DNA from: Candidatus Dojkabacteria bacterium
GTDB taxonomy: Bacteria > Patescibacteriota > Dojkabacteria > SC72
Length of the DNA: 64,000 bases
NCBI GenBank assembly: GCA_040765985.1
Contig: JAXGRK010000001.1
Location: forward strand, 136,513 to 200,512
Direction: 5' to 3'
The position numbers and the translations under genes were made by a program. The notes below the pieces were generated by a model that worked only from the letters and a program-made list of their open reading frames with translations, had not been told where the DNA came from and ran no database searches. This document shows positions 9,441 to 12,559 of this stretch, piece after piece (position 1 is the stretch's first letter; each line of letters starts with the position of its first letter).

Positions 9441-10385
9441 TTGAGATATTTAATACTTGATAAGAAACAGCGACTAAATGAAGACAACACAGCAAGTGCC
9501 AATATCCGAATTGCTGAGGAATTGGACAAAAAAAGTATACCCCACTCTCTTGCATACTTTGACGAATTAGAATTTGAGTTCATAGATGGTGAAACAGTGA
9601 TAAAAGCCAAGGGAGAGGATATAAGGAAATATAGTCATATCATATTCAGAGGGCATGATTTACATAGTGACATGGAGTATCACTTTAAAAGGTATATCGT
9701 TGAATACACTGATCAACATAATGTAAACAATCCTCAAAATAAGGTATTAGTACAAAATAGTAAAAGTATTAAAAAGCTTCCTTACTACAACAAAATCTCA
9801 CTCGCCCTATTCTGTTCTTTGCATAATATCCCTTACTTTAATACATATTTTAGAACAGACGGTAAATATTTAGAACAAAGAGATGTACTTAACTCATATC
9901 CTTTGATAATAAAAGATTACTCTGGTGCAAACAGAATAGAAAAAATAGATGGGAAGGATAAAATAAAAAAGAATGTATTTAAACTTGATTCAGTTCAAGA
10001 GTATCAACAGGAGTATCTTAAAAATTTAGACCTTTCTAGGATGTTTATTCAAGAATTCTCGGATAGTAATATAGACATGAGGATTTTCGTTAGCAAAGGG
10101 AAAGTAATAGCTGGATGGAAGAGACAAGGAAGTCAAAGTTTCATGACAGTGAGTAACGGAATATATAGTATGTACAACATTCCAGAGGATAGTATAAAAA
10201 TTTTTTCAGAGAATGTTGCACGGATTTTTGGAGCAGATTTTATCGCTGTAGATATCATGATGATGAATGGAAAACCATTACTACAGGAAATAAGTTTACA
10301 TCCTGGATTCAAAGCATATGAGAACAAAATAGAGGGGAAACCGATAAATATAGCCGAAGCAATAATTACATCCTTTAATGATTAG
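9441..10385 (+). CDS. RimK-like ATP-grasp ligase (TTG start)
   Basis: 314 aa with ATP-grasp C-terminal motifs (YPLIIKDYSGANR, MFIQEF, DMRIFVSKGKVIAGWKR, FIAVDIMMMNGKPLLQEISLHPGF). It starts 2 nt after the previous stop. Assignment to the RimK subfamily is by pattern only. Confidence 0.6.
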   Translation: MRYLILDKKQRLNEDNTASANIRIAEELDKKSIPHSLAYFDELEFEFIDGETVIKAKGEDIRKYSHIIFRGHDLHSDMEYHFKRYIVEYTDQHNVNNPQNKVLVQNSKSIKKLPYYNKISLALFCSLHNIPYFNTYFRTDGKYLEQRDVLNSYPLIIKDYSGANRIEKIDGKDKIKKNVFKLDSVQEYQQEYLKNLDLSRMFIQEFSDSNIDMRIFVSKGKVIAGWKRQGSQSFMTVSNGIYSMYNIPEDSIKIFSENVARIFGADFIAVDIMMMNGKPLLQEISLHPGFKAYENKIEGKPINIAEAIITSFND

Positions 10386-11544
10386 ATTTCTAGTTTCTTA
10401 AAAATATCCTTCCATTGCTCTTTCGTAGGAACAATTTTTGGTTTAGGAATTAAGCCATCGTCAACCCATTCACACTGATCAATATCAATCTTACCTGCGT
10501 AAAGTTTTTCATACAAAGATTTATCTTTCTCTAGTGCTTTTTTTACCTTTCTAAAGCCCCTAAAATATACTACATCTTTTGCATATATTCCTGGATAACT
10601 TGTATCCCCTAGTCCCCTTTTAACACTAAAAGTAATATCGAAGGATGTTATCTTAGGGAAAACCCCCAACAAGCTATTGTAAAGTTGTCTAAAGGTTAGT
10701 TTCTCTCCAATATATATGGCCCACGTTAAAGCAGCTTTCTTTTGCAACCATCCTAGAGTCAATAAGTCCATATCAGATTCGTTCCAAGTAGCCAAACCCT
10801 CTTCTACATCTAAATAACTTGTTAAATTAGCATTAGATAACGGTTCAACTCCACTACTTTCACCATTAACGGATCTTAGCACATGGGTTCCAACCTCATG
10901 TACGAGTGTCTTCTTTAACTTAAATTTAGATCGTTGAATATTAGGATCCACTAATACCCATTTACTTTTAATACCTACCTTAGCACCATTCTGACGAATA
11001 TTTGATGAACTCTGTACTCTCCAACCATCAAGATTAAAATATTCAAAAGTCTTGTTAAATATGTATTCAATCTCTTTGTAATCTAAAAGATCTTCTTTTT
11101 TACTACCGGATATTTAACTATATTGTAGTTATCAACGTTTCCTCGTAATACTCTTGCAGAATTCCTAAAAAGTAATGCCGAAGGCCTACCATACTTCTTA
11201 TTTGATATTTCAGTTACAATATCGTTATTTCCAACTGCATTTATTAAATCGTTTACTTCTTTCTTTGATTCTATTAACTTAATATAGAAGTCGGAAATCC
11301 TTGGATCCACATTAGATATCTGCTTTAATGAAGCTAATCTTTTTAGAATCTCACTATTATTGTTCTTTAGCTTCCTATATGTAAAAATTGGATCATAGAT
11401 ATCAGAAGAGAAAAATTTTTCTCTCTCACTTTTAAGATTTATAGGGGTAAATACTAAACTCAAAGGTAATCTAAGCTTATATAGCAATTGATTGACCTCA
11501 TCTGTACGCATACTTGTTTTATCTGATTTTGAAAATACGTTCAT
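10382..11544 (-). pseudogene. DUF1704 / MATCAP-like (QEGLA-motif) metallocarboxypeptidase; frame broken by a 1-nt indel in a T6/A6 run (11096-11101)
   Basis: ORF 11083..11544 (N-terminal part) and the frame containing 10382..10951 (open up to 11113) join to about 387 aa. Motifs are LVHEVGTHVLRS (HExxxH) and VEEGLATWNE (the QEGLA equivalent). The ATG overlaps the mreB stop (TAATG), and the stop codon interdigitates with the stop of the convergent RimK-like gene. Confidence 0.7.
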
Positions 11545-12559
11545 TATGAAATTGATTTATTAAAACTAAAAGATCTCTCACCTATACTCATTAACTCTAA
11601 CGCAATACCAGTACCTTTTGCAACACAGTACATTGGCTCATCTGCAACATACGCAGGAACACCTATTGCTTTAGTAAAAAGTTTATCTAAATTCCTTAAC
11701 TTAGATGTTCCACCACTCATCGCAAACCCTCTATCCATAATGTCAGCCGATAGCTCGGGAGGTGTCTTTTCGAGTACTCCCTTAATACTGTTAATTATAC
11801 TCAACAACGGCCTTTTTACTGCTATAGCCACATCATTAGAATCGATATTTACCGCCTTGGGTAAACCAGCTCCAAAATCTCTTCCTCTTACCTCCATTGT
11901 TTTAGGATTTTTAATATCGATTGCTGAACCAATCTTAATTTTAATACTTTCAGCAGTTTGCTCTCCAATTAACACACCTTTTTCTTCTTCATATAGTTGA
12001 TTATGGATTCATTTATAGCATCCCCAGCTATTCTTAAAGAGTCATACTCCACGATACCATCCAAAGATATTACTGCTACCTCTGCAGTACCACCACCAAG
12101 ATTTACTATCATATTACCTGAAGATGTCTCGATAGGAAGACCTGCACCAAGTGCGGCAAGTAATGGCTCAGGTAGCATAGTAATGTTCCTTGCACCAGCA
12201 TTAGTAGCTGCTTTAACAACAGCTCTCTGTTCTACAGTAGTTATACCAGCGGGTACACTAATGACTACATCTGGTTTAAAGAACCTAGATTTCCCTAATG
12301 CTTTATTAAAAAAATACTTAAGTAATGCCTCAGTAATTCTAGAATCTGCAATTACCCCATCCCTTAAAGGTCTTTTTGCAATAATGTTGTCTGGGGTTTT
12401 ACCAATCATTTTTTTTGCTTCTGTCCCTACAGCTATTACTTTGTATGTATTCACATCTATAGCAACAACTGTTGGCTCAACAAAAACAATACCCTCTCCT
12501 TCTAAAAAAACGACAGAGTTTGCAGTACCTAAATCTATCCCTATTTTCTTTCCTAACAT
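11544..12559 (-). pseudogene. mreB: rod-shape protein MreB; single frameshift at an A5/T5 run (~11979-11983)
   Basis: ORFs 11969..12559 (GIDLGTANSVVF..., RPLRDGVIAD, NLGGGTAEVAVISL) and 11544..11975 (LIGEQTAESIKIKIGSA..., MSGGTSKLRNLDKL) are the two halves of a ~338-aa MreB. The junction reads ...INYMKKKK|(G)VLIGEQTAE. Confidence 0.85.

Follow-up and report, generated by a model that had tools for sequence, protein, structure and literature searches.

This study concerns a gene pair in a 64,000-nucleotide (nt) stretch of a Candidatus Dojkabacteria bacterium genome (assembly GCA_040765985.1, contig JAXGRK010000001.1, positions 136,513 to 200,512 of the forward strand; hereafter, the window). 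On the minus strand, at 10382-12559, mreB is followed by a gene of the MATCAP/DUF1704 family of zinc peptidases, and this peptidase gene faces an operon of ATP-grasp ligase genes on the plus strand (4605-10385). A first-pass annotation of the same DNA had described the pair, and both genes were recovered in the window sequence and by profile matches. Both junctions described there can also be read directly from the sequence (Table 1). The mreB stop codon and the peptidase start codon have one base in common, and at the other end the peptidase gene runs tail to tail into a RimK-like ligase gene, with stop codons at 10382-10384 (minus strand) and 10383-10385 (plus strand), the open reading frames (ORFs) including their stops sharing 10382-10385. 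By comparing this locus with its relatives, we found that ATP-grasp amidoligases are genetically linked to the MATCAP domain in several bacterial lineages that are not related to each other, and that in some Patescibacteria the domain is physically fused to such a ligase.

The peptidase, mreB and the facing ligase operon

The frame-corrected peptidase matched PF08014 (MATCAP) at 95.5 bits against a cut-off of 27, over profile positions 2-345 of 365. Its score against TIGR02421, the QEGLA equivalog model of NCBIfam, was 113.2 bits, far below the cut-off of 338.65, and it carries EEGLA in place of QEGLA; of the two models named in the first-pass annotation, only PF08014 reached its cut-off. By these scores the peptidase belongs to the family without being orthologous to the QEGLA proteins of Proteobacteria. 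Its HEVGTH sequence forms the HExxxH zinc-binding and catalytic motif (H216, E217 and H221 of the corrected protein) and aligns with HEIGTH of human MATCAP. The EEGLA motif, the counterpart of QEGLA in Proteobacteria, aligns with EEGLA of the human protein, and we take its second Glu to be the third zinc ligand. Residues H216, E217, H221, E249 and G250 were invariant in alignments of 40 and 50 diverse family members, and the metal-binding HExxxH and downstream Glu that the first-pass annotation had anticipated are intact once the frame is corrected.

Sequence and fold agree in pointing to human MATCAP. A sequence match was obtained to its chains 7z5g and 7z6s (E 2.5e-11), with HE[IV]GTH and EEGLA aligned. 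An AlphaFold2 model was made of P0001, a homologue 98% identical to the window protein (pLDDT 93.2, pTM 0.90), and in a Foldseek comparison of this model with the PDB, the only hits with E<0.001 were to human MATCAP (E about 1e-11, TM 0.59/0.67); the next match was an M32 carboxypeptidase at E 0.03. The assignment to DUF1704/MATCAP in the first-pass annotation is thus upheld by both the profile and the predicted fold. No signal peptide or hydrophobic segment was seen at the N-terminus of the translation, and the peptidase is therefore probably cytoplasmic. We conclude that the product of the gene running from 11544 to 10382 is, as predicted from its sequence, a cytoplasmic MATCAP/DUF1704 zinc metallopeptidase that would act as a carboxypeptidase. 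Some of its homologues are named by NCBI 'tyrosine/phenylalanine carboxypeptidase domain-containing protein'.

The gene order and the overlaps of the first-pass annotation stood, but each gene is split in the window and cannot be read there as one continuous frame. The break in mreB lies at about 11981 (ORFs 11969-12559 and 11544-11975) and that in the peptidase gene at about 11101 (ORFs 11083-11544 and 10382-10951). Both are 1-nt deletions in A-rich runs relative to sequences that are 96-96.5% identical in DNA and whose counterparts are intact at 338 amino acids (aa) for mreB and 387 aa for the peptidase. The mreB gap against L001/L006 falls within 'GAAGAA-AAAGG', with the frame passing from -1 to -3 in tblastn, and the peptidase gene reads A6 in place of A7. 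P0001, equal in length to the corrected peptidase, is intact behind an intact 338-aa mreB on two contigs, and over the 3.9 kb in which these contigs align with the window (96.5% identity) the only two gaps are exactly the two breaks.

These breaks could in principle be biological and reflect either pseudogenes or programmed -1 frameshifting. Their nature as 1-nt deletions in A-rich runs would suit such a reading, as would the zero-frame heptamer A_AAA_AAG at the peptidase break, which matches the slippery heptamer of the dnaX type. However, both genes are in frame in the near-identical relatives, and homologues of the peptidase are intact at 376-394 aa in their hundreds. Furthermore, when the proteins of a related genome were aligned to the window by tblastn, frame shifts also appeared in ProRS, in UvrA (twice) and in two ATP-grasp genes; these are single-base insertions or deletions (indels), gains as well as losses, within the first 21 kb of the window. 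Relative to L006, at least 12 single-base gains or losses occur in coding DNA over 17.7 kb, some of them at non-slippery sites. Because the same kind of indel breaks other genes while a 96%-identical relative is intact, we read the breaks as assembly errors, and because ProRS, an essential gene, is broken likewise, the mreB-peptidase locus shows no specific decay. A programmed frameshift or a pseudogene was therefore rejected as an explanation, and we would give biological breaks next to no probability. Judged from these comparisons, the peptidase gene is intact in the organism, and the zero-frame A_AAA_AAG is a coincidence and no recoding signal. The indel-broken stretches of the window comprise 6713-9439, 16067-18844 and 19061-20523, in addition to the sites at 11101 and 11981, and in an assembly this prone to error any 'pseudogene' or 'frameshift' elsewhere in the window should be distrusted.

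Table 1. Features of the mreB-peptidase locus and the facing ligase operon (window coordinates)
Feature	Position	Strand	Remarks
RloB-type seven-transmembrane (7TM) protein	4605..5270	+	221 aa; first gene of the ligase operon; PF14402, 64 bits; without transglutaminase domain
RloC-like ATP-grasp (ATPgrasp_ST) fused to C-terminal RimB/RloA-like retropepsin domain	5260..6735	+	PF14397, 223.8 bits
Second CphA/GshB-like ATP-grasp ligase	6713..7733	+	about 328 aa in relatives; frame broken here by an extra base near 7175
ATP-grasp resembling the cyanophycin-synthetase G domain	7735..9439	+	about 565 aa in relatives; frame broken by an extra base near 8027
RimK-like ATP-grasp ligase	9441..10385	+	314 aa; PF08443; TIGR00768 family, below its cut-off
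Tail-to-tail stop-codon overlap, peptidase gene and RimK-like gene	10382..10385	both	4 nt
MATCAP/DUF1704-family zinc peptidase	10382..11544	-	387 aa after correction of a 1-nt deletion near 11101 (A7 read as A6)
EEGLA motif	10790..10804	-	
HEVGTH (HExxxH) motif	10883..10900	-	
TAATG junction	11544..11548	-	mreB stop and peptidase start
mreB	11544..12559	-	338 aa after correction of a 1-nt deletion near 11981; PF06723, 427.8 bits on the corrected protein
PEGA-domain protein	12612..14189	+	PF08308; divergent from mreB; conserved together with the mreB-peptidase pair

The first-pass annotation had taken the TAATG junction to mean that the two genes are co-transcribed. A scan for promoters and terminators, which has little power in DNA this rich in A and T (it gave 30 promoter-like sites where 48.6 were expected), showed neither a terminator nor a strong promoter between them, and the overlap and the conservation of the gene order in relatives make co-transcription probable. 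Upstream of mreB, the sequence TGGTATAAT (12557-12575, minus strand) precedes the ATG and ends only 5 nt before it, with no Shine-Dalgarno sequence, which suggests a leaderless or near-leaderless mreB mRNA made from an extended -10 promoter. The scan did not list this site because it has no -35 match.

The facing operon is preceded by a terminator-like hairpin after rplL (4462-4487) and then by the best promoter-like site of the region (4537-4566). Its first two genes place an RloB-type 7TM gene (PF14402) beside an RloC-type ATP-grasp gene (PF14397) at 4605-6735, which is the gene pairing of an RloABC-type module. The 7TM protein matches only the C-terminal part of RloB, positions 311-503. The RloC-like protein scored 286 bits against TIGR02291, just under the cut-off of 314, and its C-terminal part, which matched RloA3, keeps the DTG motif of a retropepsin in the translation. 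In this pair we found neither a separate retropepsin with a signal peptide nor an inactive transglutaminase domain on the 7TM protein. The ligase at 7735..9439 gave partial matches to NF010623 and TIGR02068 and is intact at 564-569 aa in L003-L005. No ATP-grasp protein of the window reached the TTL family PF03133 in the profile search; the TTL-type partner to which the first-pass annotation had likened these ligases is thus not among them.

Gene neighborhoods within and beyond Dojkabacteria

A search covering one genome per species returned 207 relatives of the peptidase, and the best 80 were all from Dojkabacteria (47-100% identity), named candidate division WS6 or Candidatus Dojkabacteria, i.e., Patescibacteria (candidate phyla radiation, CPR). 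We scored mreB at the 70 loci with at least 1.1 kb of upstream sequence and the RimK-like gene at the 68 with at least 1.1 kb downstream. Upstream of the peptidase gene and on the same strand, mreB was present at 70 of 70 loci, overlapping it at 14, separated by 0-30 nt at 40, by 31-150 nt at 11 and by 1.2-1.7 kb at 5. The RimK-like gene lay convergently downstream at 66 of 68 loci and overlapped the peptidase gene at 31. Since every one of the 70 loci from related species keeps the mreB-peptidase arrangement, it is far from chance. Two deeper relatives, P0122 (39% identity) and P0124 (44%), keep the order PEGA-mreB-peptidase with differing flanks, their ligase genes being 7 kb off or interrupted. 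The adjacency of mreB and the DUF1704 gene reported for the window is therefore a conserved trait of this lineage, and where the sequence extends far enough, nearly all related loci, L092 included, have the PEGA gene upstream of mreB.

In at least three of the five large gaps, the insertion is a Wzy_C (O-antigen-ligase-like) gene. In the deep-branching Dojkabacteria L073:8692-9948, L075:8317-9660 and L074:8533-10026, the Wzy_C membrane protein gene separates mreB from the peptidase gene and is encoded on their strand. The two exceptions to the ligase link, L032 and L083, have unrelated genes after the pair: a 7TM histidine kinase gene and a YcaO gene in L032:11215-16593, and DprA, TopA and S2 genes in L083:11174-18794. 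Many metagenome-assembled genome records with a typical Dojkabacteria locus (L006, L008, L009 and others) are titled 'uncultured Candidatus Saccharibacteria bacterium', a label that is apparently wrong or generic.

More distant contexts were reached through a cluster-representative search, cluster look-ups, plasmids and a metagenome scan. The most direct association with a ligase was found in other Patescibacteria. About a dozen representatives of 750-815 aa carry the peptidase match in their C-terminal half, and all four of these that were scanned, as well as a truncated one of 644 aa, are fusions of ATPgrasp_ST with MATCAP. In GCA_001783255.1, the fusion gene begins 3 nt after a PKD-7TM_transglut gene, with no mreB within 8 kb. 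Thirteen more ATPgrasp_ST-MATCAP loci were recovered in the metagenome scan, and the 7TM gene was present wherever the contig reached far enough upstream. The parts of these fusion loci correspond to separate genes of the window: identity to the RloC-like protein is 40% for the ATP-grasp part (E 2e-70), identity to P0001 is 31% for the MATCAP part (E 6e-36), and the 7TM part of the locus shares 26% with the window 7TM protein (E 8e-20). One and the same ligase thus carries a retropepsin in Dojkabacteria and, in other Patescibacteria, a MATCAP domain in the retropepsin's place.

Separate genes repeat this association. A lineage at 38% identity (L094, L096 and L097) carries the peptidase gene within this ligase/7TM cluster, beside rplJL, and lacks mreB there. 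On pSymB of Sinorhizobium meliloti (L089:5421-9222), an operon encodes an FGase, a QEGLA protein of 628 aa and a GshB-like ATP-grasp protein; the proteobacterial QEGLA protein has an N-terminal extension of about 275 aa. In Vibrio sp. HDW18 (L088:6119-8110), FGase and MATCAP domains are fused in a protein of 663 aa. In L148, a RimK-like gene follows the peptidase gene and overlaps it, and the RimK-like product gave a sub-threshold TTL hit (E 1.4e-4). At low salinity, the QEGLA gene of Photobacterium damselae is upregulated 27-fold, the adjacent 'GshB' gene 38-fold and rimK 52-fold (PMC10308900).

Outside Dojkabacteria, mreB was never adjacent to the peptidase gene in the contexts sampled (the fusion loci, the L094 type, L148, Proteobacteria and DPANN archaea), and in the metagenome sample it stood beside the peptidase only in seven loci of the Dojkabacteria type. 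An ATP-grasp gene is no universal neighbor either, as the DPANN archaeal and STAND-linked loci without one rule this out. In DPANN archaea (Woesearchaeota and Nanoarchaeota; L086:7083-9113, P0133, L112, L133, L144, L157, L162 and L171), the peptidase gene consistently follows a Peptidase_M48 gene. No ATP-grasp gene was seen nearby in the DPANN archaeal loci, and the downstream gene is that for RNase HII where examined (L086, P0133). A large gene encoding 780-1206 aa directly precedes the MATCAP-family gene at L146:5401-7884, L155:5378-7876, L169:5038-7593, L150:882-3353, L138:35-2389, L147:1251-4670 and L117:4366-7986. The two of these that were scanned individually, L146 and L117, encode STAND NTPases with AAA_16 and TPR, L117 having a caspase domain as well, and in P0268 the STAND-TPR part is fused to the MATCAP domain. 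From its gene context, STAND-linked MATCAP looks like an effector in a conflict or signaling system, separate from the ligase context. In a single case (L095:3962-10334, 36% identity), the peptidase gene has other cytoskeletal and division genes, ftsQ-ftsA-ftsZ, 2.7 kb downstream and no ligase nearby.

A putative function for the peptidase

The RimK, CphA, GshB and TTL types of ATP-grasp amidoligase lengthen a C-terminus, with the carboxylate being activated as an acyl-phosphate. Human enzymes of the MATCAP family take off C-terminal residues (PMC10499314). The fusions and operons with ATP-grasp proteins therefore suggest a write-and-erase pair acting on one C-terminus. We lean, with a confidence only somewhat above even, toward the view that the peptidase is the C-terminal trimming or hydrolytic partner of the facing Rlo/RimK-like ligase module. 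The link to a ligase recurs in independent lineages, namely, the ATPgrasp_ST fusions, the cluster lineage at 38% identity, the Sinorhizobium operon and L148. The general idea put forward in the first-pass annotation, that ATP-grasp ligases are opposed by a MATCAP-like peptidase, thus gains support from independent fusions and operons outside the lineage in which it was conceived.

On the basis of these data, we provide a putative mechanism. In the cytoplasm, at the membrane, a peptide tail or an oligo- or poly-amino-acid product would be assembled by the 7TM protein together with the four ligases. Its length would be set by trimming, carried out by the fused retropepsin and by the MATCAP-like enzyme. 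In Dojkabacteria, placement of the peptidase gene in the mreB operon may tie its expression to cell-envelope growth, and MreB itself need not be a substrate. In Pseudomonas aeruginosa, rloABC, which encodes a secreted retropepsin, a 7TM protein whose transglutaminase domain is inactive and an ATP-grasp protein, controls hypo-osmotic tolerance, biofilm formation, antibiotic susceptibility and cell morphology, and loss of rloB or rloC suppresses the defects of protease mutants (PMC12239564). Together with the low-salinity response of Photobacterium, the mreB operon itself, the PEGA gene, a GT2 glycosyltransferase and the Wzy_C gene of the deep branches, these phenotypes would be in keeping with a role in the envelope or in osmotic homeostasis.

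Several observations weigh against the view that the peptidase trims the product of the ligases. Within Dojkabacteria, the link to mreB is tighter than the link to the ligase (70/70 vs 66/68); L032, L083 and L102 lack a ligase cluster in the 8-10 kb that follow, and L092 has its ligases at a distance of 7 kb. In the window, the peptidase gene is on the strand opposite to the ligase operon. The DPANN archaeal homologues adjoin M48 peptidase and housekeeping genes (nine such loci in the metagenome scan), and at 26 further loci the commonest neighbors are the AAA_16/TPR STAND NTPases. In the literature searched, we found no functional study of any bacterial DUF1704/QEGLA/MATCAP member; in Nicot 2023, bacteria appear solely as an expression host. 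Alternatively, the neighborhood might have no functional meaning, the enzyme being a general cytoplasmic peptide trimmer and its synteny simply inherited in a small, slowly rearranging genome. The long-range order UvrA-PEGA-mreB ... rplJL-rplKA-nusG-secE is indeed conserved across Dojkabacteria, and the homologues in DPANN archaea and in some bacteria lack both an ATP-grasp gene and mreB in their vicinity. However, without a functional link it is difficult to account for the ATPgrasp_ST fusion and for the independent ATP-grasp operons of unrelated phyla, and the trio of PEGA, mreB and peptidase genes survives where its flanks have been rearranged. We therefore consider an inherited, meaningless neighborhood unlikely.

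The first-pass annotation had gone further and suggested, as speculation, a cycle in which ATP-grasp ligases extend the C-terminus of MreB, or of a ribosomal protein such as L7/L12, and the MATCAP-like enzyme takes the added residues off again, in the manner of TTL and MATCAP on α-tubulin. What speaks for this is the same-strand adjacency at all 70 loci, with 54 pairs overlapping or at most 30 nt apart, and its retention in relatives of 39-44% identity, including cases in which the ligase cluster is broken up or not close by. A segment near the end of Dojkabacteria MreB, GERxF[ST]FN[KR], is conserved, and for L7/L12 it can be added that the ligase operon adjoins rplJL in several lineages. However, the residues after this segment are variable: MreB ends in FRR in 31 cases, SIT in 15, GYN in 4, SIS in 3 and others in the rest, the deeper relatives end in ...QKSLGN and ...SNLHIN, and the tails of L092 and L093 are unrelated. 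In the clade that keeps the adjacency, we found no conserved last residue and no acidic or aromatic terminal residue on MreB (the last residue being R, T, N, S or others). L7/L12 ends in ...VELE in the window, with A, E, Q, K or V as the last residue in other Dojkabacteria and N or K in the two deeper relatives, and the C-terminal ends of L10 vary as well. A conserved C-terminal residue of MreB was thus not found, and L7/L12 and L10 were rejected as substrates of a RimK-like tail ligase since their ends are not conserved across Dojkabacteria. In addition, the lineages sampled outside Dojkabacteria lack mreB next to the peptidase gene, no ligase of the window reaches the TTL family, and the lineages with the adjacency may share one ancestral arrangement, in which case 70/70 would count as a single event.

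MreB and L7/L12 are therefore not supported as substrates by these comparisons of tails, and we regard a tail code on either protein as improbable. The more specific proposition, that the ligases of the facing operon extend the MreB tail of Dojkabacteria and that a co-transcribed MATCAP-like carboxypeptidase trims it, making a bacterial counterpart of the tubulin tyrosination and glutamylation code, strikes us as a long shot. If it were true, the antagonism of TTL and MATCAP in eukaryotes would go back to a ligase-peptidase pair of prokaryotes whose target was already a cytoskeletal filament. The trimming partnership with the ligase module, which we favor, does not depend on MreB as a substrate. 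It proposes a concrete biochemical role for a large family without an assigned function, that of trimming C-terminal additions made by ATP-grasp ligases, and the logic of the tubulin code, in which a ligase writes and MATCAP erases, may then have a prokaryotic precedent. The mreB-peptidase operon of Dojkabacteria would offer a defined system in which to ask whether the bacterial actin homologue or its envelope machinery is regulated in this way.

Relation to known systems

MATCAP was recognized as a tubulin detyrosinase in 2022, and we know of no established function for its prokaryotic relatives (DUF1704/QEGLA). The human proteins MATCAP1/TMCP1 (KIAA0895L) and MATCAP2/TMCP2 are tubulin detyrosinating and deglutamylating metallocarboxypeptidases (PDB 7z5g, 7z5h, 7z6s; PMC10499314). 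The window peptidase shares with them PF08014, the HExxxH and EEGLA motifs and the fold (Foldseek E 1e-11), and ATP-grasp enzymes may be its antagonists, as TTL and the TTLLs are for MATCAP. It differs in having only about 19% identity over the structural alignment, in belonging to a bacterial host without tubulin or microtubules and in facing ligases of the RloC, CphA and RimK types and not of the TTL type. The proteobacterial QEGLA proteins (TIGR02421) belong to the same family and also lie in an operon with a GshB-like ATP-grasp gene. Unlike them, the window protein has EEGLA, no N-terminal FGase-like extension, no FGase partner and another set of ligases.

The neighborhood resembles the RloABC and RimABK ligase-protease modules, with an RloC-type ATP-grasp, an RloB-type 7TM protein and a retropepsin domain next door, and with the same logic of a ligase set against a peptidase. 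Unlike in RloABC, the window 7TM protein has no inactive transglutaminase domain, and the retropepsin, which lacks a signal peptide, is joined to the ligase; the window also adds three further ATP-grasp genes and a MATCAP-type metallopeptidase. Two of the window ligases resemble the ATP-grasp (G) domain of cyanophycin synthetase. In contrast to CphA, only the G-domain region matches (244 and 151 bits vs cut-offs of about 850-877), and there is neither a Mur-ligase-like M domain nor a cyanophycinase. The pairing of a polymer-building ligase with a dedicated peptidase, as in cyanophycin synthetase and cyanophycinase, is a known design. As in the mreBCD operon, mreB comes first in a short same-strand operon, but the gene after it encodes the peptidase (or Wzy_C and then the peptidase in the deep branches) and not mreC or mreD.

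The family and the gene were already annotated, and Rim- and Rlo-type ligase-protease modules were already known. Relative to the literature searched, what is new is that the MATCAP domain is coupled to ATP-grasp/7TM modules of the RloC type, fusions included, and that Dojkabacteria have a strictly conserved mreB-MATCAP operon. No paper joining MATCAP with ATP-grasp was found in that literature, which did not cover Iyer et al. 2009, a paper that may hold related neighborhood predictions.

Elsewhere in the window, an intact gene for the RuBisCO large subunit lies at 20551-21921 on the minus strand; it is 72% identical to RuBisCO_large of L004, and its synteny is kept in L003 and L004.

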